A stretch of 62,659 nucleotides of DNA from a virus: positions 1-62,659 of the IMG/VR virus record IMGVR_UViG_3300028048_000073; one strand, given 5' to 3'. The position numbers and the translations under genes are program-made. Positions 3,586 through 62,659 of this stretch are shown here, piece after piece (positions within the stretch are counted from its first letter, which is position 1; each line of letters begins with the position of its first letter). The notes beneath the pieces were generated by a model. The model saw only the letters and a program-made list of their open reading frames with translations, was not told the DNA's origin and did not search any database.

Positions 3586-4252
3586 TGCTATGTGGCATCA
3601 TCTAAGCAAGTACTGCCGCATTTTATTCACCGTATTTTTATACCTCTTATTATCTCTTTCTATTGGTCTTAGCAATAGAACAATACAATATAATCTTATG
3701 TATTTATGCGCGCGTTCGGTTTGTATATCCTCGCACAAGTTTGGTTCATTACGAAACGGCTGCCCGCGCCTCAATATATACTCCATTATTTTCTCACTAT
3801 TGTTCTTCCACAAATGTTGTAATAAATATCCTTCATTAATAATATCATTCAAAATTTTTAAATAGTTTTATCAATACTCTTTAAATGTTTTTATACCTTT
3901 AAATAATTTATTAAGATAATTGTTTATAAAGCAAAATTTATTTAATTGTTTTTATTTATTTATGGCAGCGGCAAATATAAAAAGAAAATAAAACATAATG
4001 CGCTTGCTTTTGTGGCAGGTGTATTAAATAAACGGCTTACTTTTGTGGGAGGGTCCTAGGTGAACGGAGCCAAGAAAAAAAGTCTTCAGCTTCGTGACGT
4101 ACCGGGGGTATATTTTGGGATAATAAATTTGATTTTCTAAAAAATTTAATTTACCACGCACTTTCCGACAGCAAAAGTTTTTTCGTTTTAAAAAAGCGAA
4201 GCATATTTTCTAAACACCAATAACGAAAAATTTTTAAATCAATTAAATATTC

Positions 4253-31048: not shown

Positions 31049-34000
31049 ATGGCTTTTATTGAGAATGTCTTAGAAGCAGCAGAGATCACTGCGAATGCAA
31101 AACAGCAGGCCTTTGATAGAACTATTCAAGCAATAGTAAAAGATAACTCAGATCCAGATCATGAGGGCTTGATAAAAATATCTTATAAGGACGCTATTCT
31201 ATCTGTTTATACAGAGGCTAAAAATGTTAAGGAATACAAGCCGGGCGCGCATGTTTATGTTACAATTCCTAATAATGATATAAATGGGCGAAAAACGATT
31301 TTAGGATTGGTAGAAAAGATTGGTCCGTTAGCAATTATAAATGACAATGATGAATGGTCTATTGAAAATCGTTATCAGGCGGCGGAAGACGTGCAGTTTA
31401 TGGATGATGATTTTACTATTGGAACAAAATTCTTTAAATATGAATACGTAATAAACTCAGGAAATAATGAATTATCTTTTAAAAGATACGATAGTAGTCA
31501 TCCGGGCGGCGTAATAGAAAATAATGCAAAAATTCAAGAGTTTTTAAAGTACCTTAAAGATGCGGCGGTTCAAGGAAATTATCTTCGTTTAAAGGGTATA
31601 TTTACAACTTTTTTAATGTCAGAGCAACGAAATTTTTCCTCATCTAATTATGGTATTAAGATTAGTTTTAAGGTTGGTGGGGAATATTTTTCTACAACTT
31701 TAGATATTGATCAAATGACAGGCAATCCCTATTTCCAAAAAGAGCAGCAGCAATCTATAATTATTGATACGACGAAAGTGGACGCGAAACGACTTCAGTC
31801 TATAACAATTGAATATGAAAGGTATGGCTTCCCGCCATCACAGCAAAATTTGGAAGAAAATAATGTAGTGAATGCTATTAATCCTTTTATTTCCATTTCT
31901 AATTTTATTGTTGAAATAGTTTCTAGTATGTCTCAGGAAGAAACAGCTGATTTAACGTTGTATATCAATCCACTTAATGGAAAAACTTTTTTGGCACAAG
32001 GAAATGGTACTAGTATAACGGCATTAAAGTTAAATGCAGTTATAAAAGAGAATAAGGTACAATTAGACAATTCATCTTTGAAATGCTGGTGGTATGAAAG
32101 GGATAGCTCTTGGATTGACGCAAAGACTAATCTTTCAAGTACAGATGATAGTGATAATATTATATATGATTATTATAGTCAATTGAAAGCAGTTGCGATT
32201 CTTGATAGAGGCGGACCTGGCTGGCGGCCAGTCCATAGAGATACGTTAACAGCGGAAAAAGTTTCTAATGTAATTGGAAAAGATGTAACAAAAGAGTTTA
32301 GTAAATTAAAAAATAGTTATCCTAGCCAAGTGTATGATTACAATATTAATGATATTAATCCTTTTATCGTATATCGTGAAGATTTGGGACTAGCTATAAA
32401 TAAAGAATATAAAGTTGTTGGTATCTATAATGGAGTTGAATTATCTGCTACAATTATAATTAATGATCGTGATAAAGAGAATCCATATTCTTTAACGCTT
32501 GAAGAAAAAACATTATCTGGAGAAACATACACACAATATCGTTTAAAAACAACAGCAGATAGGCACGCGAATATTTCACTTAAATGGTTTTATCTTCAAG
32601 ATGGTGAAGCTTCAGAATTATTAATAGATACGAAAAGAATAGACGAAGAGAATAAAAAAATAGAAGGATGTTGTTCTTCTGACTATTGGACAATCGGATT
32701 GAAGCATAAAATTTTTCCTTATAGTGGTGAAGTTATTTGTGAAATTTATGAAAGCAATGAATTAGTAACAACATTAAGGGAAAATTATAATGCGCCATTA
32801 GGTGAACAAGTTTTATTTTATAATTTTGAACAAGTTTTTTTATACGATTCTAATGGAAAAATAAAAATAGTTGGGGATAATGCAGATGAAGAAGAGGAAG
32901 AAGATAAATATAGTATTACTGTTCGCCCATTGAGTTTATCTGGAGTAGTCTCTAATGTTAATTGGTATATCCCTGACAATCATTTTTTTGACACTTCACA
33001 ATTAGAAGCAACAGCAGAAAACACAAGTACAATAGATTTTATTGAACAGGATGGCATTCGATATATTAAAATTCGAGATAGAACGTCATTATCTAATTTA
33101 AAGATTAAAAAGGATTTTTCTAAAGACGCCTTTTGTGAAAACATTACTGTTACTTATCACTTTAATTCAGCTGATTATTCTAAATCTACTAATTTTTCTT
33201 TTTTAATGGAAGGCGATGATGGCACCAATGGCAGTGGACTTGTGTGCCGAGTAGTACCAAATATAGACACAGATGGCTATTGCCCCAACACTGTTATTTT
33301 AGGCGTTCAAAATGTCAATGGAGACGGCGGCACTCGCAAAGATACTAAAGCCATGTTTAATTTTCTTCCAGCAAGAATTAGCGAAGCAGATATGAATAGG
33401 GGCATTAAAAAAATGATGGAATCACGAACACCTCATTATTTTAAAGCTCAACTTTGGAAACAAAATAAAAAGATTTTTGAAGGGACAATTCGTAAGGCAT
33501 CTGATAGGGATATAACGAAATTAAAATGGGAACTATTAAATGATAATATTATACAGTGTAATAACAGCAGCGACTCTATTATTGGATGTCAAAAAGCTTT
33601 TTCTGAAGCAGAATTATTAGAAGCTCTTCGGCTGCCGCAAGGAATAAAAGCTATAATAAAATATCAAGGGCAAGAAATTTCCTATACCTTACCCTTTTTA
33701 ACTTTTGGTTTTACGGGACAAGATCGGGGTGCTAATAGCCATGCCCTTACTTATGCTAATTTAAAAGAATATGGTATTATAAATAATAAAAATGGTTTTT
33801 CTTTAAATCAATTGGTTAAATTTTATTACAATGAAGATGGAGAAGTAAATGGTATTTCTGTTAATAATAGTAATAATGTTTTGAGCGGTAATCTGAAAAA
33901 AAGTTATGCTATGATTAAGCCAGACAGCAAAGATAAAACAGAATGTCAAGCCTTTTTACTTAAAGGTGATGAATATTGGTGGATCGCCAAAGGAACCTCT

Positions 34001-35551
34001 GCAATAAAAGAAAAATGTCAGACAACTTATAAAGAAGTTGATTTAACATCTCACTTTGGAATACTTGCGAGTGGAGAGAATTCATATAAAATAAGTCCTT
34101 TTGCAACTAGATATTATCCCGGAAAAACATCTTCTGATGTAATTTGGATAATAGATAACAAAAGCAAGGTCTATATACAGATTCCTTTATTATCTTTTTT
34201 AATTTTAGTTTCAGATAGTTTTATCGCTGATTGGAATGGCGGCGTTGAAATAAATGAAGAAGAAGGCGATATTCTTACAGAATGGATCGCCGCAGGAGAG
34301 GTGCCTGCTGATAACAGTTTTTCTGGCGGAGTCTTAGGAAAAAGAAATAATAAAAATGGTTTAGTGCTTTATAATGGCGAAAGAACTATGTATTTAAGCA
34401 AAGAGGGTACAATAGAATTAGGTACAGACCCTGAGAAGCGATTAAAAATTGATGGTAAAACAAGTTCAATTTTTTCAGGCACGAAGAATGGGCTAATTTG
34501 TGATTTTAATAGTGATAGAATAGATATGCTTCAAAAAATCAGTGGAACAGATTCTACCATTAATAATTTATTTTTAAGAGTACGAGTCGGTAATGAAAAT
34601 CGTTTTTCAATTCAAAAAGATGGCACCATTACAGCTGATTTGATTGTCGGAAATACAAATAAAATGGTACATCCGTGGTACAAGGATAGTAAAGGGAAAA
34701 TTGAAGTTGTAAAAGACAATAGCAATAAACCAATAAAAAGCCGTTTTTATTTAAAAGAAGACACTGGGGCGCTGGGCGTTAATGTACTATATGTGCAGGA
34801 TGGAAAAACTGAAATGCCGACTGACAAAGACAGCTATATTGAAGGGATGAGAATCACTTGTGAAGGCATATATCATGGAATTGGCGCGCTTTGGTCGACT
34901 GGAGAAAACAAACCATTGGTATATAACGGCGAGCAGAAAAATAGCTTTGCTCTAAATCGCTCTGGAATAGTGACCTGTGATACAGGAGAAAATTATGCTG
35001 CATTATCAGCAAAAGGATGGGCATCAACCTCGCAGGGATTTGCCATTGGAATGAATCCGATTCCTAGAAGTGTTAATGAACAAGGTACGACACCATATTG
35101 GGTTTTTCGTAAAACGGGCTTATCTTCACCAGATAATCTTCAAAAAATCTATCAAGATCCTAGTGATTCATCAAAAAGATCTTTTTCTTTGTCAGGTAAA
35201 AGGGTTTCAATTGCATCTAAAACAGATAAAATTGTAATCACAGGATCTGGTTCTCCAAACTATGGCGCAGGATCTTCTCCAAATGATGATGACGTTCATG
35301 GAGAAGGTAGCTTACATGTTATAAGTGGACATGGTATTTGGGGTAGAGGAATTACTTCAGATGGAGAAATTTGTGCACAAGGCAGCATTCGATCTGCTTG
35401 TGATGTAAGCGCGGGAAGATTTCAAATAACTACTAATGATTCTTATACTGATGGGTTTACTGGTGGTCCTTTCTATTTTGTTGATGCAAATGGAGACACT
35501 TGTAGCTTTACAGTGACAGGCGGTATTATTACTAATGTGACTACTGGTTGA
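31049..35551 (+). CDS. large tail protein (distal tail / tail-associated lysin-like or fibre protein, 1500 aa)
   Basis: position directly after the tape-measure gene; beta-rich; GAAGGAG RBS. Confidence 0.55.
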   Translation: MAFIENVLEAAEITANAKQQAFDRTIQAIVKDNSDPDHEGLIKISYKDAILSVYTEAKNVKEYKPGAHVYVTIPNNDINGRKTILGLVEKIGPLAIINDNDEWSIENRYQAAEDVQFMDDDFTIGTKFFKYEYVINSGNNELSFKRYDSSHPGGVIENNAKIQEFLKYLKDAAVQGNYLRLKGIFTTFLMSEQRNFSSSNYGIKISFKVGGEYFSTTLDIDQMTGNPYFQKEQQQSIIIDTTKVDAKRLQSITIEYERYGFPPSQQNLEENNVVNAINPFISISNFIVEIVSSMSQEETADLTLYINPLNGKTFLAQGNGTSITALKLNAVIKENKVQLDNSSLKCWWYERDSSWIDAKTNLSSTDDSDNIIYDYYSQLKAVAILDRGGPGWRPVHRDTLTAEKVSNVIGKDVTKEFSKLKNSYPSQVYDYNINDINPFIVYREDLGLAINKEYKVVGIYNGVELSATIIINDRDKENPYSLTLEEKTLSGETYTQYRLKTTADRHANISLKWFYLQDGEASELLIDTKRIDEENKKIEGCCSSDYWTIGLKHKIFPYSGEVICEIYESNELVTTLRENYNAPLGEQVLFYNFEQVFLYDSNGKIKIVGDNADEEEEEDKYSITVRPLSLSGVVSNVNWYIPDNHFFDTSQLEATAENTSTIDFIEQDGIRYIKIRDRTSLSNLKIKKDFSKDAFCENITVTYHFNSADYSKSTNFSFLMEGDDGTNGSGLVCRVVPNIDTDGYCPNTVILGVQNVNGDGGTRKDTKAMFNFLPARISEADMNRGIKKMMESRTPHYFKAQLWKQNKKIFEGTIRKASDRDITKLKWELLNDNIIQCNNSSDSIIGCQKAFSEAELLEALRLPQGIKAIIKYQGQEISYTLPFLTFGFTGQDRGANSHALTYANLKEYGIINNKNGFSLNQLVKFYYNEDGEVNGISVNNSNNVLSGNLKKSYAMIKPDSKDKTECQAFLLKGDEYWWIAKGTSAIKEKCQTTYKEVDLTSHFGILASGENSYKISPFATRYYPGKTSSDVIWIIDNKSKVYIQIPLLSFLILVSDSFIADWNGGVEINEEEGDILTEWIAAGEVPADNSFSGGVLGKRNNKNGLVLYNGERTMYLSKEGTIELGTDPEKRLKIDGKTSSIFSGTKNGLICDFNSDRIDMLQKISGTDSTINNLFLRVRVGNENRFSIQKDGTITADLIVGNTNKMVHPWYKDSKGKIEVVKDNSNKPIKSRFYLKEDTGALGVNVLYVQDGKTEMPTDKDSYIEGMRITCEGIYHGIGALWSTGENKPLVYNGEQKNSFALNRSGIVTCDTGENYAALSAKGWASTSQGFAIGMNPIPRSVNEQGTTPYWVFRKTGLSSPDNLQKIYQDPSDSSKRSFSLSGKRVSIASKTDKIVITGSGSPNYGAGSSPNDDDVHGEGSLHVISGHGIWGRGITSDGEICAQGSIRSACDVSAGRFQITTNDSYTDGFTGGPFYFVDANGDTCSFTVTGGIITNVTTG

Positions 35552-52562: not shown

Positions 52563-53048
52563 TTAAAAATCAACCCCTCGACGGAGGATACGTTGATTTG
52601 AACTTCCGCGAAGTTTTAAAGTAATATCTCTTTTATCTTTTTCATAACGTCCATCCACAATTGTATCAACAAGACTTAGGATAGTACCAATATCATTATC
52701 ATTCATATTCAAAAGAGCTTCTAAAGTATATCCTGTCCAAAGGTTAAGAGTAAGATCAGGATAAATCTTATGAATTGCAACAAGTAGTTTTGCTACTTCT
52801 GCCCTATTCTCTGGCGCCAATGGCTCCCCGCCTAAAACGGAAAAGAATGAGAGATATTCCTTTTTTTGTCCAATTAAAGAGAGTATTAATTCTTTAGTGG
52901 CGGAGGTAAATAACTCTCCGCCATTAAAGTCCCATGTTGATTGATTAAAGCACTCTGAACAATGAAAATGGCATCCTTGGACAAATAAAGAAATGCCAAA
53001 TCCTTGTCCATTTGTTACATCCGTTTCCCTTATTTGTGCGTATCTCAT
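52563..53048 (-). CDS. nrdG: anaerobic ribonucleotide reductase activating protein (radical SAM, CxxxCxxC = CHFHCSEC)
   Basis: 161 aa; GQGFGISLFVQGCHFHCSEC; lies immediately downstream of nrdD. Confidence 0.8.
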   Translation of the reverse strand: MRYAQIRETDVTNGQGFGISLFVQGCHFHCSECFNQSTWDFNGGELFTSATKELILSLIGQKKEYLSFFSVLGGEPLAPENRAEVAKLLVAIHKIYPDLTLNLWTGYTLEALLNMNDNDIGTILSLVDTIVDGRYEKDKRDITLKLRGSSNQRILRRGVDF

Positions 53049-53049
53049 A

Positions 53050-55242
53050 TTATTCTCCTATTGCATGATCTGTTACATGAACGTAGCGATTAACAAATTC
53101 ATCCATTCGTCCTTGATTTGGAACAGTTGTAGAAATATAACCACAAACTCTACGAGCAATATTCATTTTATCTGTGTTAGTATTTCCGCAATTTGGACAT
53201 TTATAATAGTGTTTGCCTAACTCGTTGGTTTTAATCTCAATTTCTCCATCATAACCACACTCTTGGCAATAGTCTGACTTAGTATTTAATTCCGCGTAGC
53301 CAATATGATGAGAAATAAATTTAATGATTTCTAAAATCGCAGGTATATTATCTTGTAAGTTAGAAGTTTCTCCATAAGAAATATATCCGCCAGGACTTAG
53401 TTTCTGATATTCTGCTTCTATTTTTAGCTTATCAAATATATTAATATGCTCTTTAACATCTACATGATAAGAATTAATTATATATTCTTTATCAGTAATA
53501 TCTTTGATAATTCCAAAATCTCTTTGAAGAGCCTTTGCAAATTTCCAAGTCAAACTCTCTTCCGGAGTGCCATATACAGAGTATCCAATATCTTCTTCTT
53601 GTGCCCATTTGTTACACATATCATTAAGATGTTGCATTAATTCTTTTGCAAATTTCATACCTTGGGGAGTGGTATGACTAAAACCAGTCATTACTTTTGT
53701 AGTTTCATAAACTCCAACATAACCAAGAGAAGAGGTCATATAACCATGATGAACTAAATCATATAAAGTTTCTTCGGGGTCTAATCGAGCCAATGCTCCA
53801 TGACACCAAAGAATTGGTGCTACCTTTGCCTTAGTGTTGGATAATCGTTCTGCTCTAATTTTTTGAATTTGGTGACATTCTTCTAAATACTTATCCAATA
53901 TTTCGTAAAAATCTTTATTTTGTTTTTGTGATAGTAAAGCGATATAAGGAAGATTGATAGTAGTAACGCCGCAATTTGCGCGTCCATAATACTTGGGCTG
54001 TCCCTGAACGTAATCTTTTGCTTTTGCTAAATTTCCATATTTGCTTGAAAAAGTATCTGGGGATAAACTACTGCGGCATCCCATGCTCGGCCAACAACCG
54101 CCCTTATTATGAGTCATTACTTCTGCACTTACATAGTCTGGAACCATACGTTTTGCTGTGCATTTTGCAGCTAACTCTGTTAGCCACCAATACTCAGATT
54201 GTTCGTTATCATTATCTTTATCCAAAATGTATAGAAGTTTTGGAAAAGCTTGTGTTATGGGTATTCCCTGTGGATTTTTTAAACCTTCAATTCTTTGTTT
54301 AAAAATTTCTGCGGTTAATTGAGCTACTTCATTTTTATACTGTTTTTGCTCATTGAGATACATACATACGCTAACAAATGGCGACTGACCATTAGTTGTG
54401 GTGAAACTATTTAGCTGATAGTTCATTGTTTGAACAGCGTCTTCAATTTCTTTAGCTAAATCTTGTTTTGCTAGTTTTTCCGCTTGCTCACGAGTAACAA
54501 TCTTTTTATATTTTTCTAAATATCTTTCATAGCTTGCTCGAACAAAAGGAGCTAAATGTGTGAGTGAAAAAGTACAACCTCCATATTGCGAACTAGCCAC
54601 TGCACTTACAATTTGTGTAGCAATAGTCATGGCAGTAATAAGTCTATGGGGTTTTTCGATAAGAACTCCATTAATTACAGTACCATTTTGTAGCATATCA
54701 TTAAGATTAATTAAGCAACAGTTAGACAATGTTTCTTGTGCCATATAATCCATATCGTGAATATGAATAATTCCCTTTTCATGATCTTGAATTATTTCTT
54801 GCGGGAATATATATTTTTTTGCAATATATTTAGAAAGAATCCCCGCCAAATAGTCACGCTGAGTAGTTACTAATTCAGCTCTTTTATTAGAGTTTTCCGT
54901 TTTCAAATATTCATTTTCACCTTTAACAAGTTCTAGGGCAGGCTTATCAAGAGGGGTAGTTCTCATAATGTCGCGCAATTGGCGATATTCAATATAAGCA
55001 TGAGCAACATCTCTTCTTTTTGTTGCCATGAGACCATTTTCAACATAGTCCTGAATTTCTTCTATTGTCAAAACCTTCTCTTTGCAAACTATTTCAATAT
55101 AGTCTGCAATTTTTTCTGCTTTCGAGATAGCATAATCTGTAAGTTGTCCATCTACAGCTGCAAAAGCTTTTAATACGGCTTTTACGATTTTATCTTTATC
55201 AAATTCAACTTTTCTGCCATCTCTTTTTATTATGTAAACCAT
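53050..55242 (-). CDS. nrdD: anaerobic ribonucleoside-triphosphate reductase (class III)
   Basis: 730 aa; ATP-cone-like N-terminus; C-terminal Zn site CQECG...CPNCG; glycyl-radical motif RRVCGY. Confidence 0.85.
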   Translation of the reverse strand: MVYIIKRDGRKVEFDKDKIVKAVLKAFAAVDGQLTDYAISKAEKIADYIEIVCKEKVLTIEEIQDYVENGLMATKRRDVAHAYIEYRQLRDIMRTTPLDKPALELVKGENEYLKTENSNKRAELVTTQRDYLAGILSKYIAKKYIFPQEIIQDHEKGIIHIHDMDYMAQETLSNCCLINLNDMLQNGTVINGVLIEKPHRLITAMTIATQIVSAVASSQYGGCTFSLTHLAPFVRASYERYLEKYKKIVTREQAEKLAKQDLAKEIEDAVQTMNYQLNSFTTTNGQSPFVSVCMYLNEQKQYKNEVAQLTAEIFKQRIEGLKNPQGIPITQAFPKLLYILDKDNDNEQSEYWWLTELAAKCTAKRMVPDYVSAEVMTHNKGGCWPSMGCRSSLSPDTFSSKYGNLAKAKDYVQGQPKYYGRANCGVTTINLPYIALLSQKQNKDFYEILDKYLEECHQIQKIRAERLSNTKAKVAPILWCHGALARLDPEETLYDLVHHGYMTSSLGYVGVYETTKVMTGFSHTTPQGMKFAKELMQHLNDMCNKWAQEEDIGYSVYGTPEESLTWKFAKALQRDFGIIKDITDKEYIINSYHVDVKEHINIFDKLKIEAEYQKLSPGGYISYGETSNLQDNIPAILEIIKFISHHIGYAELNTKSDYCQECGYDGEIEIKTNELGKHYYKCPNCGNTNTDKMNIARRVCGYISTTVPNQGRMDEFVNRYVHVTDHAIGE

Positions 55243-55290
55243 TATAATTGGCCTCCTTAGATATATAAATTAGTTTAAAGGAAAGCATCC

Positions 55291-55896
55291 TTATAATATA
55301 TTATTTTTTGAATTGAAATATTTAATTGCTTCGTCCATTATATTTTTAACTAAAACTTCCGTTGGGAAATCTTCATAATCAGTCTGCGTATATCCTAAAT
55401 AAAGATGAGGATACTTGTTAAAAAATGCCTCAAAATCTTTTTTATCGGTATGATAACGTCTTATAATTTCTTCTATATCTGGAGAAATTTCTCTGTTCAA
55501 ACTTCTAATTAATCGTACTTTATCAAAGCAATCCAAAAAACAAGGAAAAACACATATATCTTGCTTCTCTTTCTCGCGGCAAAGCAAAAAATCAATTCCT
55601 GTAGGATTAAAAACGCCAATATTTATTTTTGAAACTCTAAGATCCTCAATACCTGTTCCATAATACCAATTATTGAAAACAGTTGTTTCTAAAAATTTAC
55701 CTTGAGCTTCTTTTAAAGCAAAGTCCATTTTATTGACAAAATGATAATTGATTCCATCTACCTCTCCAATACGCTTTGGGCGAGTGGTGTATGAAACAAT
55801 AGTATGAATATCTTTAGGATATTGTTTTTCAATGGCTTTGAGCAGCGTGTCTTTCCCCGCGCCGCTCTTACCAAATATAGCAAGTATGTTATACAT
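55291..55896 (-). CDS. gmk: guanylate kinase-like (d)NMP kinase
   Basis: GKSGAGKDTL P-loop and TTRPKRIGEVDGINYHFV match Gmk TTRPPRxGExDGxDYxFV. Start trimmed to MYNIL after a GGAGGA RBS. Confidence 0.65.
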   Translation of the reverse strand: MYNILAIFGKSGAGKDTLLKAIEKQYPKDIHTIVSYTTRPKRIGEVDGINYHFVNKMDFALKEAQGKFLETTVFNNWYYGTGIEDLRVSKINIGVFNPTGIDFLLCREKEKQDICVFPCFLDCFDKVRLIRSLNREISPDIEEIIRRYHTDKKDFEAFFNKYPHLYLGYTQTDYEDFPTEVLVKNIMDEAIKYFNSKNNIL

Positions 55897-58800
55897 ATTC
55901 TTCCTCCGTTTTGTATCTTTCACTTGTCAAGACTAAGCTGTCTTTATTTACTTTTGTTATTTTATATAACTGATGACCAGGGGTATCAAAATAAGTCTTT
56001 GATACAAAAGTATCATCTTTACGATATCCTTGAATCATAAGTTTTGTTCCTCTCTTGAACCAAGATTTTTCCTTTACGTGCTTATCGCCTGCTTCATCTT
56101 TTTCAGATATCTGTTTCTTAAACATAGCATAATACTCTTTTGTGAACTTTACATTGACGACACCATCCACTGTCAGCAGAGCAATGGATGCCTTTGTATC
56201 ATTCTTACCGATAACAGTGCCTGCAATTCTTTTTATTTTATAAACAGGAAGTCGTCTACCATTCCTCTTATAATAATGGTCAACTTCTGGCTGCTGTGGC
56301 ATTGAGAAGAAGTTTTCAATTCCATATCTATTGAAATCAACATTTGCTAACTCATGTGGATGTGAGTAGAAACATAATGCAGACATTTCCCAGAATGAGA
56401 TACTTCCTTCGGCATAATGATCCCAATAATCTAAGAACAGCTTTATATTCAATTCTTGTAGAACTTGCTCTTGATATTCTTTAAGCCAAGTGCGGGCGCC
56501 ATCCATGAACTTATCATATAACTTTGCCCATACGGAGACCTTTATGCAAGGAGTTCCCGCAATTATTTCAACCTTATCAATATCAAAATACTGCTCATAG
56601 AAGTTGTAACAGTCATCATCAAAAGCATAATAGCCCCTTACTTTTCGCTTTGCTTTAAGATATTTATTAAAGTTAAAAGCATATTTGTATTGAACCATAT
56701 TCTCAGGAATTAAATCTTGGTTAATTAGTCCATTAAAATTCTGTAAGGTTAATCTCCGCTTCGGCTCACAAGCCTTTGCACAGAAGATTGTCATAATCAA
56801 AATGCGGGGGTCAACCCCTAATTCCATTGCCCATTCTCTCTCCAAGTTATCAAATGCACCACCTTTAATAAGTGATAACATCGTTGGCTTTTTCAAAGGG
56901 CATCTATTCATAAAATCAAAGAAGCTAACATAAGGTCTGCCCGCAATAATCTGGTCAATCTGTGCTTCATTAACCTGTGTAACTGGCTTTAATCCATATA
57001 GAATTTGATTATTTTTTGCATCCGGTTTAAACGTATATCCTGAACTATTGATATCAATAATAGAAACTTTAATTCCTCTATTAATTAATGTTCCAATAGC
57101 ACGAGCAATTTTTTCATAGTTGGCATTTTTTGCTTTTTTAGCATTATCTTCTTCTTCTTCTTCTTCATCCCATTCATTTTCTTCTGAATTGCTATTCACA
57201 ATTAAGCATGCTGTATTCCAATAAATGGGATTCCAATTTGTAGCTAAAAATGCTGTCTGCAGTCCTATGAAACTATAAGCAAGCGCATGGATGACGCTAA
57301 AACTGTAGGTAGCTTGAGGTTTTACCCCACAATCCCATATATATCTTCCTAAGTTAGGAGATTTTGCTCTTGTTTGAACTTTTATTTTTAATTCATTAAT
57401 GCGTTTTGTTTGTTTCTTTGAAATAATTTTGCGTGCGTCGTTACTTTCTGCCAGCGAGAAATTACAAATATTGGCGTCCATCAACATCCGCATAAGATCT
57501 TCTTGAGCGATTGGAACACCGCAAGAGGGTTCAAAATACGGTCTAACAGCTTCTACTTCTTCTCTTGTCAAACCATATTTTCTCATTTCATCGTACCACA
57601 ATGCAATATTCTTCTTAAAACGGATATATTTTTCCATAGGCGGTTCCGCGCCTTTTTCGCTTGGTGCTAATCTCATAAGTCCGTTACTAAGTGCTAATTC
57701 TTCAACTGACCGGGGAGCAATTTTCTTTGCCGCTTGGCTTCCTACGTCTGAGTCAAATTGGAATAAATCTAGCACACATCCTTCTTTGATCGCTTGCCAA
57801 ATTTCTTTTCGATTGGTAGGAAGAACCTCAGGGTGAAGATATTTATTGTAGATTTCTCTTAACGACAAATCCTTTTCTATTTGCCCATCTTCTTGTAAAA
57901 GTTTTATTGTTTGTAATATTTTATCTTGGATTTTTGTGATCAGAACGTCATATTTAATGTTCCCTGCCGCCTCGGCTTGATGAAGATCCCATTGTGTAAT
58001 AATATCTCCATTTGGCGCACGCATAAAAGCACACTTTTCAAAAGGATTTCCTTCAAAAAAGATAACCCCGGATGCATGCTCTCCTCTGCCGCTAATTGTT
58101 TGCTGCACGCCTAACGCAATATCAATTAATCCAGGGTATTGTTCAACCTCTCTTACAAAAGGCATTACAGGTTTTCTCGCCTTTTCTTCATTTCCATAAA
58201 GAACATCCTCTAATGACCAAGCTTCTCCTCTTTCAGTGGGAATTAGACTAGAAAGATACTGACCGATGTCAATATCAATGCCTTCTGGCCACTCTTCGGA
58301 ACGATAACCTCGACAAGCTACAAGAATTGCAGATTTTGCACTCTCTGTTCTAAAAGTTGCAACAAGAGTACAGCCTAAATTTTCCTTAAAAATATCGTCT
58401 AAATCATCATCTAAATAAGCTTTTCGTTCTGCTTTAATTCGTTTCAAGATAGTAGGGCGACGATCTGAAGCTACATCTATGTCAACATCAGCAATTTCAA
58501 GTCTTTCACTGTTCATATAACGAAACCAAGGGAGGTTCCATTTGACCGGGTCTAGCTGCGTAATTCCCAATAACCAGTGATTTAGTCCTGCACAGGCGCT
58601 TCCTCGTCCCGCTCCGACCGTGCTTCCGCAATCCCATATCATATCAATATAGTGTTGCAAAGTAACTGGATAAGAAAACATATTGGTATGGATTTTTTCT
58701 CCAATGATTTTCTTAGTACAAGCTTCTTCTTCAAGCCTTTCCAAGTAAATAATTTTATCAGGGTCTTCTTCCCAATTAATGTTTTTGCTCTTTAATCCTT

Positions 58801-59860
58801 CAAAACATTGATTTACCCAATATCTTTCAACCTCATTTGTTGAACTAAATAACGAACTGAGGACTGGAAATTTTTCTTTAGGCAGTATAGATTCTCTTTT
58901 AGGATAATCTTTGATATCAACAGTAGGTATCTCTGGATGAGAAAGAATAGAATACTCTTCTACTTTATTATATATATCATTACTATTTTGGAACATTTTT
59001 TGAACATAGAGTCTATCATAGTCAGACTGTGCAAGATGTTCAATTATTTCTTCGTTGGATTGAAGATAAGCATACTGATAAAAAGCATCAACTTCTCTTT
59101 CGCCCTCTTTAGAATTAAGAAAAGCTTTATGGATGGGGCGTTGTTCTGGAGTTAAATAATGAGAGTCTGACCCTATTACCATAGGAACATTAAAGCATGA
59201 GCTAACTGAAAGCAATCTTCTATTAACCATAACCTGATCTTTTGAACAACCAGGCGCACATTCAATATAAAAATCTTCTCCAAAAAGGTCTTTACACATT
59301 AATATAAAATTAACAATTTCATCATGTGCTCTTGCTACTTCTACATGATCTTCTAACCGCTCAGCTTCAATCAACTTTTTAGTATTGTAAGATAGACACC
59401 CAGCCAAGCAAGCTGTTGTTGCTATTAAAGTATTAGGATACTTTTTACAAATTTTCTTTAAGTCATCATAGGTTGTTACTACCCGTTCCATCCTGCGGTC
59501 AACGTAAGAATTGAGCCAAGCTTTTGAAGATAATTCTCTTAACGCAATATGTCCTTGAAGATTTTTTGCAATCAAGATAAAATGGTAATAAGGTTGATTT
59601 TTACTTCTATCTCCACATAGGTAAATTTCATTTCCAAGAGCGACTTTAAAATCGGGGTGTTTTTCTTTTATCTGCATAGCATATTTGTTTGCGTGAATAT
59701 GTGCACTAAGGCAGTCATGATCAGTTATTGCTATTCCGCTCAAACCCAATTCTATTGCTTTGTCAATTAACTGCTCCGGTGCATTAATTGCATCAATGAG
59801 ACGTAAAGAAGAATAATAGGTATGAGAATGTGGTTCAAAGCGAGTGTCTGTTATTTGCAT
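55889..59860 (-). CDS. dnaE: DNA polymerase III alpha subunit (DnaE-like, N-terminal PHP domain)
   Basis: 1323 aa; PHP motifs HSHTYYS and AITDHD at the N-terminus; length and architecture of pol III alpha. Confidence 0.75.
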   Translation of the reverse strand: MQITDTRFEPHSHTYYSSLRLIDAINAPEQLIDKAIELGLSGIAITDHDCLSAHIHANKYAMQIKEKHPDFKVALGNEIYLCGDRSKNQPYYHFILIAKNLQGHIALRELSSKAWLNSYVDRRMERVVTTYDDLKKICKKYPNTLIATTACLAGCLSYNTKKLIEAERLEDHVEVARAHDEIVNFILMCKDLFGEDFYIECAPGCSKDQVMVNRRLLSVSSCFNVPMVIGSDSHYLTPEQRPIHKAFLNSKEGEREVDAFYQYAYLQSNEEIIEHLAQSDYDRLYVQKMFQNSNDIYNKVEEYSILSHPEIPTVDIKDYPKRESILPKEKFPVLSSLFSSTNEVERYWVNQCFEGLKSKNINWEEDPDKIIYLERLEEEACTKKIIGEKIHTNMFSYPVTLQHYIDMIWDCGSTVGAGRGSACAGLNHWLLGITQLDPVKWNLPWFRYMNSERLEIADVDIDVASDRRPTILKRIKAERKAYLDDDLDDIFKENLGCTLVATFRTESAKSAILVACRGYRSEEWPEGIDIDIGQYLSSLIPTERGEAWSLEDVLYGNEEKARKPVMPFVREVEQYPGLIDIALGVQQTISGRGEHASGVIFFEGNPFEKCAFMRAPNGDIITQWDLHQAEAAGNIKYDVLITKIQDKILQTIKLLQEDGQIEKDLSLREIYNKYLHPEVLPTNRKEIWQAIKEGCVLDLFQFDSDVGSQAAKKIAPRSVEELALSNGLMRLAPSEKGAEPPMEKYIRFKKNIALWYDEMRKYGLTREEVEAVRPYFEPSCGVPIAQEDLMRMLMDANICNFSLAESNDARKIISKKQTKRINELKIKVQTRAKSPNLGRYIWDCGVKPQATYSFSVIHALAYSFIGLQTAFLATNWNPIYWNTACLIVNSNSEENEWDEEEEEEDNAKKAKNANYEKIARAIGTLINRGIKVSIIDINSSGYTFKPDAKNNQILYGLKPVTQVNEAQIDQIIAGRPYVSFFDFMNRCPLKKPTMLSLIKGGAFDNLEREWAMELGVDPRILIMTIFCAKACEPKRRLTLQNFNGLINQDLIPENMVQYKYAFNFNKYLKAKRKVRGYYAFDDDCYNFYEQYFDIDKVEIIAGTPCIKVSVWAKLYDKFMDGARTWLKEYQEQVLQELNIKLFLDYWDHYAEGSISFWEMSALCFYSHPHELANVDFNRYGIENFFSMPQQPEVDHYYKRNGRRLPVYKIKRIAGTVIGKNDTKASIALLTVDGVVNVKFTKEYYAMFKKQISEKDEAGDKHVKEKSWFKRGTKLMIQGYRKDDTFVSKTYFDTPGHQLYKITKVNKDSLVLTSERYKTEEEYV

Positions 59861-59936
59861 TTTATCACCTCATTTTTTATTCTATATATATTATAACATA
59901 TTTTTTATTAAAAGTCAAGAGGAGCAAAAGCTCCTC

Positions 59937-60968
59937 TTATTTATTTTGATAATATAATGATTCATTTTCTGGTGTTAATAAAAATTTTGTTGTTGTTAAA
60001 AATAGATCTTTTTCTTCATATTCTTTATTATACGGGATTCTAATAAGAGGGATATTATGCTCAAAACAATATTTATTTTTAACTATATCATTTTTATGGG
60101 TTGTATCAAAATCATTACTAAAATGTCCTTGATGAAAATGTTGTATTCCATCGTATTCAATTAAATATAAGAGTTTATCTTTATTGTATATTCCAATATC
60201 AAAAAACAATGTTTGTCTATATGGAAAATCAGAAAAATAAATCTGTTGTTTATATTGAATATTATTTTTATCTAATATAGAACAAATTTTACTCTCATTA
60301 AAACTATTCAAACAACCGCAGCTTTTTGTATTCCCATTTCTCAAATAATCTCCAAAAACAATAACATTTTTCCGGCCACATTTAAGACATTCACAATTCC
60401 AATAAGCGCCAGTTCGATCAGTTCTAGGTTTTTCTTCTTCTGTGGCTCGTTTTACAACTTTTAAAAAGCCATATACTTTTCCACACTCGTCCTTACTATT
60501 TTTCAAACCTGCCGCTTTTGCTCCACAACTAAGACATTTAGTGCTTTGTCCACTTTTTAAATTTTTATAACTAACCTCTTTTTCAGTTTTATTACAACAT
60601 AAGCATTTACATAAATAATAAACTCTATCATTGGTTCGATTTGGTACACGTTTAATAACTTCCCATTGTCCAAAAATTGTGCCAGCTGGAACTTCTATTG
60701 TTCTATGTCCTTTCTTACACCCGCAACTGACAACTTTTCCATTTCTGATGTCTATTCCAGATTTTATTAAAATAGTTTGATTTTCACATAAACATTTACA
60801 AACCCATTGTGGTCTTCGGTTTTTTGTTACATCTTCTCTATTTAATGTTCTGTATAGAATTAATAAATTTCCATATTGCTTTCCAGTTAAATCAATGGCA
60901 TTATTTGCAATTTTTCCGTTATATTCTGGATATTGAATCTTAAGTTTTTCTAATTCTTGTTCTTTCAA
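59937..60968 (-). CDS. homing-endonuclease-like protein with three Cys-rich (Zn-ribbon-like) tandem repeats and a C-terminal PD-(D/E)xK-like (DUF559/Vsr/EDxHD-like) domain
   Basis: Repeats of the form YGxLxV(I/V)KR...W.C.C..CG...SCGC occur three times. The C-terminus LYLIEYDGIQHF...IPLIRIPY is paralogous to 9389..9751. Confidence 0.55.
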   Translation of the reverse strand: MKEQELEKLKIQYPEYNGKIANNAIDLTGKQYGNLLILYRTLNREDVTKNRRPQWVCKCLCENQTILIKSGIDIRNGKVVSCGCKKGHRTIEVPAGTIFGQWEVIKRVPNRTNDRVYYLCKCLCCNKTEKEVSYKNLKSGQSTKCLSCGAKAAGLKNSKDECGKVYGFLKVVKRATEEEKPRTDRTGAYWNCECLKCGRKNVIVFGDYLRNGNTKSCGCLNSFNESKICSILDKNNIQYKQQIYFSDFPYRQTLFFDIGIYNKDKLLYLIEYDGIQHFHQGHFSNDFDTTHKNDIVKNKYCFEHNIPLIRIPYNKEYEEKDLFLTTTKFLLTPENESLYYQNK

Positions 60969-60989
60969 TTCTAATCCCTTTCCTTTTTT

Positions 60990-62187
60990 CTACCTTATCC
61001 ACACCAGTTTTTGTTCTGCTCTTGTGCAAGCCGTGTATAAAAATTTTTTTCGTTCTTCTTTGTCAAATGGGAAGTTCTCCTCGTACACAAGAACTTTTTT
61101 CCAAGAGCTGCCTTGAGCTTTCCACCCCGTTACTGCGTAGCCGTATGTAAAACTTTTTGGAATTAATTTTCTTAATTTATCATTTTTAAAGAGTTTATAA
61201 TTCTCTTGCGGAGTAAGATAAGGCTTATTATAAAGAAAATCACTTTTATCCATATCCAATACTCCGAAATTTTCGTCTATCTCGCTTGTAAAATCGCAAG
61301 TGACAATTGGAATTTTATTACCATGAATTTTCATTCTACGCGGAGGATAAAAATTCTGCTCAAAGACATTAGAAGCGTAACCTATGCAGCCATTGATAAG
61401 TGGATATCCATTTTCTATTGACTCTATTTCCCAATAGTTCTGCAAACAAATAAGTTTTTCACCCTCATCAACAGCTACCTCTGGATTCATGCCATTTAAT
61501 ATTCGCATTTGTTGGTTCAAAGAATGTCTTGTTTTATTTGTCGCACACAAAACGATATCTGCCCATTGTAGCATGCCTTCACTTAATTCATTTTTATTGG
61601 CGACAATAACTTCATTGGTTTTCATATAGGGAATTGATTTGCCTTCGCGAATAGCCATTGTTAATTTTATTATATCACTTTCAGCTGCTTGCCGCATAAT
61701 TTCATCAAGAAATACGTGCGGACAGTCAAGGAGGTGGTTATCTTGGTCATGTGACACTGGGGGCAGCTGCCCCGGGTCTCCGCAGGCTATTACATGAACA
61801 GGATATTTCATTAAATCATTGAGTAAGTCTTTACTTACCATGGAAATTTCATCAATAACAACTATCTTATATTCAATAAAAGGAACAGGAGTTCTAATAT
61901 AAACGCCTTTTGGAGTTAACTTATGTGTGTATAAAAGTTTATGCAAAGTTAATACATTTTTATTGCCCTTTTGCCGCAAAACATTAACCGCCTTGCCTGT
62001 AAAACTTGTATATACAACATCTTTATCTGGATTAATGCCTGGTAATGCTTCAATAAGATATTTTATTAATGTACTTTTGCCCGTGCCCGCCTTAGGCGTA
62101 GCCAGATATCACAGTAAATTTTTCATGATTACGATATCTGGCTACAGCTATTTTCAAACCTTCTTCTTGCTTTTTTGTTAATTGCAT
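60990..62187 (-). pseudogene. Dda/RecD-like SF1 helicase with the N-terminal 31 codons in a different frame (+1 shift at GCC-TAA inside Walker A)
   Basis: Frame A reads MQLTKKQEEGLKIAVARYRNHEKFTVISGYA-stop. Frame B reads LATPKAGTGKSTLIKYLIEAL..., with Walker B VVIDEISM, motifs YAVTGWKAQGSSW and LYTACTRAEQKL. An AAGGAGG RBS precedes MQLTKK. Confidence 0.6.
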
Positions 62188-62246
62188 AGGTTTTATTTCC
62201 TCCTTCTTTAAGTATCTTTAATATTTCTTTATTTTGTTCTTTAATT

Positions 62247-62405
62247 TCACCTTTTTTTGTGTAATAATTCAATTTCATGCGATATTGCTTGTAGTACCTG
62301 TTGATAGTATTTTTCTCGTTCAACATCTCCATCCATATTGGCTAGCTGCGCGCAAAAGGAGGTTACCGCCATTGTGGCCAACAAGCCTAAACCATTATTT
62401 TTCAT
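62247..62405 (-). CDS. small hypothetical protein (52 aa)
   Basis: ATG after an AAGAGG RBS and a TATAAT-containing region; not in the ORF track. Confidence 0.25.
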   Translation of the reverse strand: MKNNGLGLLATMAVTSFCAQLANMDGDVEREKYYQQVLQAISHEIELLHKKR

Positions 62406-62455
62406 TCTTTTTGCCTCTTTATATTATTATATCATTTTTTTAAATAAAATTCAAA

Positions 62456-62659
62456 TTAAAAATCATATTGTTTTATTTCTTCAACTTGATAATCTTCAAT
62501 AAAAATTTGAGGAGTAACTTTGCCCATCCAAACGTTCTCATTACATCTTCCAACAAGAGTAATAACTACAGCTTCATTAGATGTAAACAATTCACATTGA
62601 GCCTCTGTTGCTTTAAAAATCATTAAATCTACTCCTGCGGGAGTTGATATTTTTATTGT
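62456..62659 (-). CDS. 3-prime end of a gene whose start lies beyond the window (C-terminus ...VTPQIFIEDYQVEEIKQYDF)
   Basis: Open frame running to the window edge and ending at a TAA at 62456-62458. Confidence 0.35.
   Translation of the reverse strand, partial: TIKISTPAGVDLMIFKATEAQCELFTSNEAVVITLVGRCNENVWMGKVTPQIFIEDYQVEEIKQYDF

Follow-up and report, generated by a model that had tools for sequence, protein, structure and literature searches.

A probable short programmed bypass element, of mobile origin, in the Walker A region of a phage SF1B helicase gene

Background

Efficient programmed translational bypass is known essentially from one well-studied natural example, gene 60 of phage T4 and its homologs, and shorter counterparts have long been expected (PMC5009743). 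The precedents closest to the locus described here are T4 gene 60 with its mobA cassette and the 10-nt inserts in the terminase gene of phage Hau3 (PMC5009743; bioRxiv 10.1101/2022.08.31.505936 and 10.1101/2024.12.09.627546; PMC10732093); gene 60 and mobA are treated by Bonocora et al. 2011 as well as in PMC5009743 and the two bioRxiv reports. For the Hau3 terminase, a junction peptide confirmed bypass in E. coli once the UUA codon had been replaced by UAA. Laboratory stop-hops in E. coli (Weiss et al. 1987; O'Connor et al. 1989) were unstimulated, took place at a rate of about 1% and were obtained in synthetic contexts (PMC5009743). According to a 2016 review, a natural in-frame stop-hop was not known (PMC5009743).

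The DNA analysed here, called the window, is the 62,659-nt record IMGVR_UViG_3300028048_000073, which encodes a helicase on its minus strand. The reading frame of this gene is broken at the Walker A motif. The break is not an error but a conserved mobile insert, and on balance it is probable that the helicase carries a short programmed translational-bypass ("stop-hop") element that came from an HNH-associated mobile cassette.

The interrupted helicase gene

The gene begins with 31 codons that end at GCC-TAA. The +1 frame then reads (TGA)YLATPKAGTGKST... and is open for 365 further codons. The initial annotation had described this arrangement and the non-homopolymer context of the break, and both were confirmed on the minus strand. 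The features of the locus are as follows.

62199..62203, minus strand: Shine-Dalgarno sequence GGAGG, 11 nt upstream of the helicase ATG, read from the sequence
62187-62185, minus strand: helicase ATG, start of the 31-codon ORF
62095..62187, minus strand: helicase codons 1-31, MQLTKKQEEGLKIAVARYRNHEKFTVISGYA, the imported 5' segment bearing the hairpin
62098..62145, minus strand: RNA hairpin; in mRNA sense, 5' arm 62145-62133, 22-nt loop 62132-62111, 3' arm 62110-62098
62095..62097, minus strand: GCC (Ala31), proposed take-off codon, in the P site when the stop enters the A site
62092..62094, minus strand: in-frame stop TAA, the A-site codon, slow to decode
62091..62091, minus strand: 1-base gap, G, proposed to be untranslated; A in the 98%-identical relative L126
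62088..62090, minus strand: GCG (Ala), proposed landing codon, 7 nt downstream of take-off
60990..62087, minus strand: helicase body, with proposed resume codon GGC at 62087-62085, then Walker A GTGKST and the other SF1B motifs
60992-60990, minus strand: TAG stop ending the helicase body, read from the sequence

The arrangement AAGGAGG-N-ATG at the start of the gene is common to the sequences L001, L126, L127 and L128. By its Pfam matches (AAA_30 at 3.1e-23, AAA_19, UvrD_C_2 and PIF1, all in the helicase body) and the annotation of its best phage matches, the protein is an SF1B helicase of the Dda/RecD-like type. The closest characterised proteins are Dda-like/RecD-like helicases of Enterococcus phages, 41% identical over 99% of the length, and the motifs GTGKST, VVIDEISM, GDPGQLPP, KAQGS and YTACTRA are legible in the translation. 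These matches bear out the "Dda/RecD-like" part of the earlier name, "replicative Dda/RecD-like helicase", and not the "replicative" part. A megablast of the helicase region against GenBank phages returned no match, nor did a search of positions 59000-62659 against Rfam at E <= 1.

The window uses the standard code (table 11) – TAA ends the upstream ORF0, and long ORFs of 1323, 3040 and 1500 aa are intact. Genes for tRNAs, suppressor tRNAs included, are absent from the window. Reassignment or readthrough of the stop does not fit the window, where a change of frame is required. A small upstream ORF in the window also has a frame break, at a run of seven A.

The break is directly preceded by an inverted repeat, GTAGCCAGATATC-22 nt-GATATCTGGCTAC, which is exact over 13 bp, as the initial annotation had it, and extends to 18 nt at 89%. 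The 3' arm consists of the codons for ISGY and ends one base before GCC, with the base of the stem abutting the take-off codon. None of 100 shuffled windows contained the inverted repeat, which places it above chance, and the 76-nt region folds at -27 kcal/mol (z = -3.9). A small stem-loop at the take-off site (GCCU/GGGC), suggested by the fold of the window, was weak and inconsistent across alleles and was set aside.

The same site in related helicases

Homologs of the helicase number roughly 4,600. Viral, metagenomic and MAG contigs yielded 83 distinct 5' ends that are interrupted at the homologous site. The sizes of the interrupted and uninterrupted sets differ by test: 83 alleles here, 25 versus 62 in the folding comparison and 22 versus 57 for the HNH gene. 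All 83 alleles have the same layout – GYA (with Ala as GCN) and a stop, 0-2 variable bases, a GCN, GTN, ACN or TCN codon, and then GGN-NNN-GGN-AAR (G-x-G-K). The stop is TAA in 69, TGA in 11 and TAG in 3, and is a sense codon in none; the seven in-frame 6-nt inserts all have a stop. Relatives in which TAG is recoded have TAA or TGA at the site, TAG being avoided. The gap after the stop is 0 nt in 18 alleles, 1 nt in 33 and 2 nt in 32, and its sequence may be none, G, A, C, T, AA, AT, AG, GA, CG, CC or CT. A scan for longer gaps, of 6-30 nt between TAA and GGN-NNN-GGN-AAR, gave only chance matches in unrelated genes.

The uninterrupted homologs read GYAG[TSA]GK[ST]T and have no hairpin; GxGK is preceded by an invariant Ala in all 62 distinct uninterrupted alleles analysed, and likewise in a set of 74 uninterrupted loci. 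The Ala codon is GCA in 24 uninterrupted homologs, GCG in 18, GCT in 16 and GCC in 4. The take-off codon is GCN in every interrupted allele (GCC 46, GCT 30, GCG 5, GCA 2), and the strong bias towards GCY may be due to a common origin of the cassette and not to function.

At the landing position, 50 of the 83 alleles have GCN, 22 GTN, 6 ACN and 5 TCN. This codon, for A, V, T or S, agrees with GC at one or both of its first two positions in every allele. In the window take-off and landing codons are GCC and GCG, both Ala; in 33 of the 83 alleles only two of three bases are matched, which breaks exact-match landing as a universal rule. Landing on GTN, ACN and TCN codons requires two-out-of-three pairing, and the same pattern of codons would also be expected if this position were translated as a small residue. 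Two further rules, the absence of T directly after the stop and the restriction of landing mismatches to transitions, were broken by L127, L132 and later data.

The frame relation can change between close relatives. L011 and L109 share 94.6% identity over 1139 nt but are in different frames, with TAA-G-GTA in the former and TAA-AT-GCA in the latter. With gaps of 0, 1 and 2 nt at one site, and a switch of frame at about 95% identity, only a frame-independent mechanism covers all alleles.

The hairpin is found in 83 of the 83 interrupted alleles (mean MFE -20.3 kcal/mol), and its 3' end adjoins the take-off codon in every one. In the folding comparison the mean MFE was -20.9 kcal/mol for 25 interrupted alleles versus -7.4 kcal/mol for 62 uninterrupted ones, with zero overlap. 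The stem covaries: the basal pair is GC in 12 sequences, AU in 6 and GU in 4, the apical pair is AU in 7, CG in 5 and UA in 2, and the arms in L006 are GTAACCAGA/TCTGGTTAC. Compensatory changes are present, and the covariation score exceeded that of all 500 shuffles. Downstream of the site, where a counterpart of the gene 60 3' barrier might lie, interrupted alleles were no better folded than uninterrupted ones at 40, 60 or 90 nt.

The peptide of the 31-aa ORF0 makes up dozens of protein clusters, one of them on 180 contigs. A whole-genome scan gave mostly chance matches; five helicase matches passed the filter, in gut or rumen MAG bins.

The HNH gene and the imported 5' segment

An HNH gene lies directly upstream of 11 of 22 interrupted alleles and of none of 57 uninterrupted ones (p = 8e-8); the upstream gene matches generic PHROG HNH families at 8.6e-24. 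In L006 the HNH gene occupies 3180-3728, with TAG read as Gln. Its presence varies between close relatives – L093 has it and L105, at 96% identity, does not.

Pairs of alleles with and without the insert show that the 5' end is imported: L011 versus L077 (97% downstream) and L001 versus L129 are within 94-98% identity downstream of the site, while the 5' part is replaced. In the window, residues 1-46 are 76-83% identical to the distant alleles L002 and L010, but only 52-61% to those alleles that are nearest to it in the remainder of the protein. The 93-nt 5' end of L127 is identical to that of the window, but the body is only 78% identical in protein. The window has kept the imported 5' segment and the insert, and has no HNH gene directly upstream, where about 470 nt are available and hold small ORFs. 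A 343-aa homing-endonuclease-like gene downstream of the helicase (59937-60968) was considered as the partner of the insert; it adjoins both interrupted and uninterrupted helicases and is therefore not associated with the insert.

Across the family, an endonuclease gene adjoins the insert where it occurs, its presence varies among close relatives, and the flanking segment is co-converted. As part of the explanation that we hold probable as a whole, the insert arrived within a mobile cassette associated with an HNH homing endonuclease. By analogy with T4 mobA and gene 60, the Walker A coding DNA that it splits would presumably be the target of the endonuclease, in which case the insert would confer immunity to cleavage. 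The initial annotation had listed a small palindromic insertion among its candidates. There is indeed a small insert, of 6-8 nt, but it is not palindromic, and the hairpin belongs to the imported 5' segment.

The proposed bypass

In the proposed mechanism, the ribosome would translate codons 1-31 and then stall in decoding, its P site occupied by peptidyl-tRNA-Ala on GCC and its A site by UAA. At this point the ribosome would still enclose the 3' arm of the hairpin, which adjoins the P-site codon on its 5' side. As the arm is drawn from the mRNA exit channel, the hairpin would refold, pull the mRNA forward, and then sequester the take-off region. TAA-G would be skipped, and the anticodon of tRNA-Ala would pair again on GCG, after a forward step of 7 nt (6-8 nt in relatives). 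Decoding would resume at GGC to give ...VISGYA-GTGKST..., a canonical Walker A, and a full-length helicase with the predicted junction peptide FTVISGYAGTGK.

Several observations are consistent with this scheme. A stop stands directly after the take-off codon, gap length and frame vary while the downstream ORF is intact, and the hairpin sets all interrupted alleles apart from the uninterrupted ones, which lack it. The hop restores GYAG[TS]GK, the pattern of the uninterrupted homologs. From these sequence patterns we infer that the event is probably a hop of the P-site tRNA rather than another form of recoding, and that a junction peptide spanning the gap would be made. The role of the hairpin as forward driver is extrapolated from gene 60, since the hairpin abuts the take-off codon while the 5' stem-loop of gene 60 lies 9 nt upstream; it may act in this way.

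The initial annotation had listed a programmed decoding event at the stop among its candidates and had pointed to the hairpin. The event is indeed real and probably programmed, is linked to the hairpin and is no random lesion; the site recurs in dozens of independent assemblies, which rules out a read error.

Alternative explanations

The alternative that survives best, although we judge it unlikely, is frame-specific recoding in which the insert is translated. The window would undergo a +1 frameshift at GCC-UAA-G, with out-of-frame decoding of AAG in the A site as in Ty3 or antizyme, perhaps with the aid of the upstream hairpin, and the product ...GYA-K-A-GTGKST. Relatives with a gap of 0 would rely on stop-codon readthrough, and those with a gap of 2 on a +2/-1 shift. 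In favour of this explanation, there are reports that +1 shifts can be stimulated by 5' hairpins that refold. The arithmetic works in the window, as it did when the initial annotation skipped one T; the overlapping codon is mostly AAG or AAA (Lys), and the G-to-A change in L126 is synonymous when read in this way.

The length of the product is another matter. GYA-K-A-GTGKST still lies within the loose P-loop pattern [AG]xxxxGK[ST], but it is two residues longer than every uninterrupted homolog, which makes the insert one of 7 nt and not of 1. A profile search found no uninterrupted protein with a two-residue insertion, a weak negative when taken alone, as it covered only 210 candidates. The sole in-frame protein two residues longer has GYAWAGTGK, which we read, from the protein alone, as a TGA rendered W by the gene caller.

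A prfB-like frameshift, as the initial annotation had suggested, fits the window alone: the family needs shifts of 0, +1 and +2 (in 18, 33 and 32 alleles) and uses all three stops. Frame-specific recoding would thus call for three mechanisms at one homologous site, switching at 95% identity, and for readthrough that works alike on UAA, UGA and UAG. The slippery P-site codon of prfB is lacking, as a shift of GCC-U to CCU leaves tRNA-Ala unable to pair again. The Shine-Dalgarno-like stimulator is lacking as well – the upstream sequence, AUAUCUGGCUAC, where such a stimulator would lie about 3 nt from the shift codon, is part of the hairpin arm and does not resemble a Shine-Dalgarno sequence. At the first inserted position the alleles would have K, N, R, T or a stop, so that this residue is unconserved, and the stop has never become a sense codon in any lineage, though seven of the nine single-base changes of TAA would make it one.

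It is less probable still, and in our view improbable, that the interrupted genes are dead, a selfish HNH cassette having entered a dispensable helicase of which nothing is translated past the stop. T4 dda is non-essential. The 5' segment would co-convert with the endonuclease gene whatever its function, several lineages were invaded recently (97% identity to an insert-free allele), and the helicase frame of L136 is split by a further insert of about 1.26 kb. Against this, the full-length downstream ORFs, in AT-rich DNA, are free of further frame breaks and premature stops where recoded TAG is counted as sense; the exceptions are L136, with the additional insert just named, and L284, by appearance a contig end that was wrongly assembled. 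The downstream ORF is under purifying selection, with a dN/dS between interrupted alleles of 0.02-0.17, although many invasions of the cassette look recent, as in L011 versus L077, and part of this low dN/dS may therefore predate the insertion. Between the helicase bodies of the window and L126 the value is 0.17. Although identity among the HNH proteins has fallen to 52%, codons 1-31 of the cassette still have the residues conserved in the family, and a ribosome-binding site with them. Conservation of the stop, of a gap limited to 0-2 nt, of the near-cognate codon and of the hairpin extends to alleles that have lost the HNH gene, the window among them. An inactivating mutation, one of the candidates of the initial annotation, is accordingly unlikely, given the conserved stop, hairpin and downstream ORF and the low dN/dS.

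A split gene is very improbable. A 31-aa peptide and a C-terminal protein, separately initiated by termination-reinitiation, would here assemble non-covalently. L001 and L009 do have an overlapping ATG in the +1 frame (within TAT GCC TAA), but it hinges on a synonymous TAT/TAC difference, and the window and most alleles have ACG. The new frame has no start codon between its upstream stop and Walker A, and strand beta-1 would be severed from the P-loop.

A sequencing or assembly artefact adding one base is effectively refuted, for although the break in the A7 run makes indel errors conceivable, the helicase site is not a homopolymer, differs by 7 nt from uninterrupted genes and has the same structure in more than 80 distinct sequences, which come from many samples and assemblers.

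Comparison with known systems

The programmed bypass proposed here is most like that of T4 gene 60. In both, an insert lies in an essential-type gene of DNA metabolism beside a homing-endonuclease gene, and the cassette carries its own copy of a host coding segment that ends at or just past the landing codon. In both, a stop follows the take-off codon directly, mRNA structure 5' of or around the take-off site is conserved, the downstream frame is free, and there are alleles with and without the endonuclease gene. The Mob proteins of T4 belong to the HNH family.

The differences are also considerable. The host gene here is an SF1B helicase rather than a topoisomerase subunit; the two are likened by arrangement and not by sequence homology. 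The proposed displacement is 6-8 nt as opposed to 50 nt, and take-off and landing would be on Ala GCN codons, the landing codon often being near-cognate, rather than on Gly GGA. One hairpin ending at the take-off codon takes the place of a 5' stem-loop upstream and an A-site or extended stem-loop. A nascent-peptide signal is not evident in the helicase, because its N-terminal peptide matches that of the uninterrupted homologs. Finally, the host gene here is not split into two subunit genes, and the bypass is read from sequence.

Like the E. coli laboratory stop-hops, the proposed event would have a peptidyl-tRNA cross an adjacent stop to a nearby synonymous codon, independently of frame, with 9 nt giving one amino acid exactly as in the gap-0 alleles (GCC-TAA-GCA). 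Unlike them, it seems to be under selection, comes with a hairpin of its own, and is found widely in nature.

The Hau3 terminase inserts are likewise short, disrupt the frame of an essential phage gene, are absent from homologs, begin with a slow or unread codon, and have a 5' stem-loop as the proposed stimulator. They are known from few genomes, in contrast to dozens of diverged helicase alleles, and their trigger is a rare sense codon tied to host physiology, whereas here it is a stop. The Hau3 paper does not mention a homing endonuclease, and the flanking Shine-Dalgarno sequence there is absent in the helicase.

With prfB (RF2) and antizyme the helicase site shares recoding set off by a stop in the A site and, in the window only, a +1 change. 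It differs in that a slippery P-site codon, a Shine-Dalgarno-like stimulator and a weak stop context are all lacking (the stop is UAA-G), and in a frame relation that is not conserved among homologous sites. The mitochondrial byps of Magnusiomyces capitatus resemble the helicase inserts in that many short inserts are tolerated, with imperfect matches between take-off and landing and two-out-of-three pairing (PMC5009743). However, byps are 27-55 nt long, scattered over many genes and largely context-independent, and are found in a mitochondrial system with relaxed decoding (PMC5009743).

Significance

Such helicases are now annotated as a 31-aa ORF and a truncated protein in hundreds of gut and rumen phage contigs. 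We lean, by a little, towards seeing in them a second, independent and far more diverse natural family of bypass cassettes with a homing endonuclease, and the first natural, selected short-range stop-hop, in which tRNA-Ala would jump 6-8 nt over any stop and into any frame, driven by refolding of a hairpin at the mRNA exit. If this is true, a stop codon within Walker A need not signal a pseudogene, and the more than 80 natural variants in gap, landing codon, stop and stem would be a ready mutational series for the rules of bypass. The system would be a minimal one – one hairpin, one stop codon and 0-2 spacer bases – that tests forward movement of the mRNA and the choice of landing site. A second, unrelated pairing of endonuclease and bypass would also suggest a general route by which selfish endonucleases may split conserved coding DNA while the gene survives.

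The helicase break in the window

The interrupted gene, to judge from its sequence, encodes an SF1B Dda/RecD-like helicase. Its parts were located as follows.

62187, minus strand: ATG start codon of the helicase
62097–62092, minus strand: GCC-TAA, the end of helicase codons 1–31, MQLTKKQEEGLKIAVARYRNHEKFTVISGYA (sequence reading)
to 60990, minus strand: +1 frame, KAGTGKST..., open for 365 further codons (ORF reading)
62133–62145 and 62098–62110, minus strand: arms of a 13-bp exact inverted repeat with a 22-nt loop (repeat search)

The 3' arm of the repeat stops one base short of GCC. A 13-bp inverted repeat was present in 0 of 100 shuffles of the window, and the hairpin region folds at -27 kcal/mol (z = -3.9). 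The initial annotation described a helicase split beside a perfect hairpin, and this was accurate when the coordinates, frames and exact repeat were re-read. With the one-base skip that it proposed, the product would exceed every homolog by two residues; compared with uninterrupted homologs, which read …ISGYAG[TSA]GK[ST]T, the true insert is 7 nt. The helicase stop is TAG (60990–60992), and the following gene begins 21 nt on. The protein cluster of the window (P0001) includes some database entries of 762 aa; in these, an alternative code applied by gene callers may have turned the TAG into sense, fusing the helicase and its neighbour.

Recurrence among relatives

No close DNA relative of the window was found among GenBank phages. 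Metagenomic collections contain many relatives, with human gut and ruminant samples among the sources named in the records. One relative at 71% identity, L001, is likewise broken at GYA-GCC-TAA-G and shares the hairpin. When viral, metagenome and genome collections were scanned by pattern and by homology, 83 distinct interrupted 5' ends came to light, that is, alleles with a stop and a hairpin at the site. The peptide of the 31-aa reading frame that ends at the stop (ORF0) by itself forms dozens of protein clusters, one of them on 180 contigs, and the 90%-identity cluster to which the window belongs comprises 41 sequences, annotated as fragments of 31, 329 or 378 aa. The break is neither an error nor private to the window's genome: a sequencing or assembly error does not fit the same break in 83 distinct 5' ends. 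It is very probably a conserved, selected recoding site sitting on a mobile segment.

One site in three frames

All 83 interrupted alleles have the same order: G-Y-A (Ala as GCN), a stop, 0–2 bases, one codon, and GGN-NNN-GGN-AAR (G-x-G-K).

Composition of the site in the 83 interrupted alleles
Stop codon: TAA 69, TGA 11, TAG 3
Gap length: 0 nt 18, 1 nt 33, 2 nt 32
One-base gaps seen: G, A, C, T
Two-base gaps seen: AA, AT, AG, GA, CG, CC, CT
Post-gap codon: GCN 50, GTN 22, ACN 6, TCN 5

A search for gaps putting 6–30 nt ahead of GGN found none. Little divergence is enough for the gap class to switch: L011 and L109, which share 94.6% identity over 1139 nt, have TAA-G-GTA and TAA-AT-GCA. The post-gap codon is GCT in L096 and ACT in L122, which are 97.4% identical, and L126, 98% identical to the window, has GCG-TAA-A-GCG where the window has GCC-TAA-G-GCG.

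Stop readthrough leaves the +1 and +2 alleles unexplained, as it does the use of all three stop codons. The prfB-type +1 frameshift put forward in the initial annotation fails on the 18 in-frame and the 32 +2 alleles. A ribosome that passes over the stop irrespective of frame would account for all of the alleles.

Proposed take-off, landing and product

In the proposed movement, peptidyl-tRNA-Ala would quit GCN and re-pair on the post-gap codon, with decoding restarting at GGN. The predicted product in every allele is GYA-G[TS]GK[ST]T, exactly the uninterrupted sequence, and we consider it reasonably likely that the event is such a tRNA-Ala hop, giving back GYAGTGKST. Four observations support this product. 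The Ala preceding GxGK is invariant in 62 of 62 distinct uninterrupted alleles and in 74 uninterrupted loci; the post-gap codon of interrupted alleles encodes A, V, T or S and in all 83 matches an Ala codon at its first base, its second or both; a sense codon never replaces the stop, and the seven in-frame 6-nt inserts retrieved by a stop-agnostic pattern all carry one; and TAG is avoided, with TAA or TGA at the site in 12 alleles from phages that use TAG as sense, and no internal TAG in the three TAG-site alleles.

In line with a stop that is never replaced, the sole in-frame protein with two extra residues to surface from a 5.8-billion-protein collection was GYAWAGTGK, a result that is weak alone because only 210 candidates were examined; from the protein alone, it is read as TGA rendered as W. 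Against the hop, one third of the landing codons are only near-cognate, and a product longer by two residues also fits [AG]xxxxGK[ST]. On the sequences at hand, models in which the insert is translated are less favoured than the hop, short of proof.

Of the 83 interrupted alleles, 76 use GCC or GCT for the take-off Ala (62095–62097 in the window), versus 20 of the 62 uninterrupted alleles, and the genomes are AT-rich. GCC serves for landing in 1 of 83. Either selection (e.g. weak wobble pairing favouring take-off) or cassette ancestry could produce this bias.

The hairpin

Folding of the 63 nt ending at the Tyr codon gave a mean of -20.9 kcal/mol for interrupted alleles (range -24.2 to -16.4) versus -7.4 kcal/mol for uninterrupted alleles (-15.4 to -1.7), with no overlap; over all 83 interrupted alleles the mean was -20.3 kcal/mol. 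The stem base abuts the take-off codon in every interrupted allele. The hairpin contains compensatory changes. At the base of the stem, 12 sequences pair G-C, 6 A-U and 4 G-U, and 5'-arm ATA (Ile) pairs with TAT, GTA (Val) with TAC or TAT; at its apex, 7 pair A-U, 5 C-G and 2 U-A. L006 has arms GTAACCAGA/TCTGGTTAC, and in L075 and L112 the stem uses a 5' arm displaced by one codon. The covariation score was above that of every one of 500 shuffles, with pairing in 80% of cells versus 19–52% in slid controls. The G-U pairs point to a structure in sense-strand RNA. No distinctive structure was found downstream of the site.

While GCC occupies the P site, the ribosome would still enclose the 3' arm in full (-13 to -1) and the 5' arm and loop would already be out, so the stem could form only if the mRNA advances. 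Pairing of the exiting mRNA has been proposed as the driver in gene 60 (bioRxiv 10.1101/2024.12.09.627546), and by analogy we give an even chance that the hairpin is a forward driver here.

State of the helicase gene

That the interrupted alleles are dead genes is improbable. With in-frame TAG scored as sense in TAG-recoded phages, the full-length downstream ORFs are intact except in L136 and in L284, which looks like a mis-assembled contig end. The dN/dS among interrupted alleles is 0.02–0.17 (between L096 and L122, for example, 23 changes are synonymous and 2 non-synonymous), and the cassette-borne codons 1–31 retain the family's conserved residues, with HNH proteins diverged to 52% identity. 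The dead-gene explanation is retained because invasions are often recent and part of the divergence predates the insertion.

In-frame TAG occurs inside the helicases of L004, L006, L009, L056, L101, L103, L111, L160, L270, L277, L289, L299, L300 and L309, and also within the HNH gene of L006. These phages apparently decode TAG as sense, probably as Gln. Long ORFs of the window are intact under the standard code.

Comparison with known systems

Full-text literature searches found no paper on this helicase site. A 2016 review knew of no natural in-frame stop-hop, and short counterparts of gene 60 had long been expected (PMC5009743). Nearest to the helicase site among known systems come gene 60 with mobA, the stop-hops made in the laboratory, and the Hau3 terminase gene with its 10-nt inserts (PMC10732093). 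T4 gene 60 shares the logic of the helicase site but differs in host gene; the helicase site has a far shorter distance, a differently placed stimulatory structure and much greater natural diversity.

The HNH gene and origin of the insert

In L006 a decayed fragment of an uninterrupted helicase and an HNH gene (PHROG HNH families, E = 8.6e-24) precede the interrupted helicase.

L006 3001–3129: decayed uninterrupted-helicase 5' fragment, MQLTYKQ...ISGYASLDKTILVEFE*, upstream of the HNH gene
L006 3180–3728: HNH endonuclease gene, directly ahead of the complete interrupted helicase

The fragment looks like the footprint of a cassette insertion. Sufficient flanking sequence was available for 22 interrupted alleles, and in 11 of them the same HNH gene lies directly upstream, versus 0 of 57 uninterrupted alleles (Fisher p = 8e-8, uncorrected for shared ancestry). 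L011, which has the HNH gene, and the uninterrupted L077 are 97% identical downstream of the site and collinear upstream as far as the resident ATGG, after which L011 has a spacer, the HNH gene, new codons 1–31 (~80% identical to the resident ones) and TAA-G. L001 and L129 are 94–98% identical from nt +150 on and 56–60% earlier; L093 and L105, 96% identical, differ in having and lacking the HNH gene.

No HNH gene was found in the 470 nt available upstream in the window. Residues 1–46 of its helicase are 76–83% identical to distant alleles, versus 52–61% to the alleles closest over the remaining protein, and L127 has a 93-nt 5' end identical to the window's, joined at the stop to a body 78% identical in protein; the window thus has the imported 5' segment but lacks the endonuclease gene. 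The cassette architecture parallels that of T4 mobA/gene 60, in which the insert extends to the landing codon or just past it (bioRxiv 10.1101/2022.08.31.505936). By this analogy, the likelihood is evenly balanced that the insert gives immunity to the HNH enzyme, shielding the Walker-A DNA from cleavage.

Neighbouring genes

62247–62405, minus strand: small ORF just upstream of the helicase
59937–60968, minus strand: gene for a 343-aa protein, directly downstream of the helicase
52563–59860, minus strand: replication and nucleotide-metabolism module
21841–30963 and 31049–35551, plus strand: two giant ORFs, 3040 and 1500 aa

The small ORF encodes 52 aa in the window and 76–81 aa in L126, L127 and L128, being shortened by a 2-nt difference at an A7 run (62252–62258); true mutation, slippage and a homopolymer error in the assembly are all candidate causes. 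It accompanies the interrupted helicase in the window's clade and is absent upstream of the uninterrupted L129. The module's 1323-aa ORF has a homolog, adjoining the helicase in L129, with PHP and DNA_pol3_alpha domains (DnaE-type); the module also encodes a protein with a guanylate-kinase-like domain, and the anaerobic ribonucleotide reductase NrdD and its activase. The window has ~33% GC, no tRNA genes were found in it, and related contigs are 97–200 kb; this context is consistent with a large phage infecting an anaerobe of the gut or rumen.

The 343-aa protein has repeated Cys-rich motifs and a DUF5889/DUF2726-like C-terminus, and matches the PHROG 'HNH endonuclease' and 'homing endonuclease' families (5e-28). 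Since in relatives its gene is found sporadically beside uninterrupted and interrupted helicases alike, it has the look of another mobile endonuclease gene at the locus, independent of the first. In L136, a TGA-type allele, the helicase is further split by a ~1.26-kb insert (1206–2469) after residue 134, just upstream of GDPxQ, and the frame differs on its two sides. The probable identity of this insert is an intron or another endonuclease gene, and if so, the helicase gene would be a hotspot for mobile elements.
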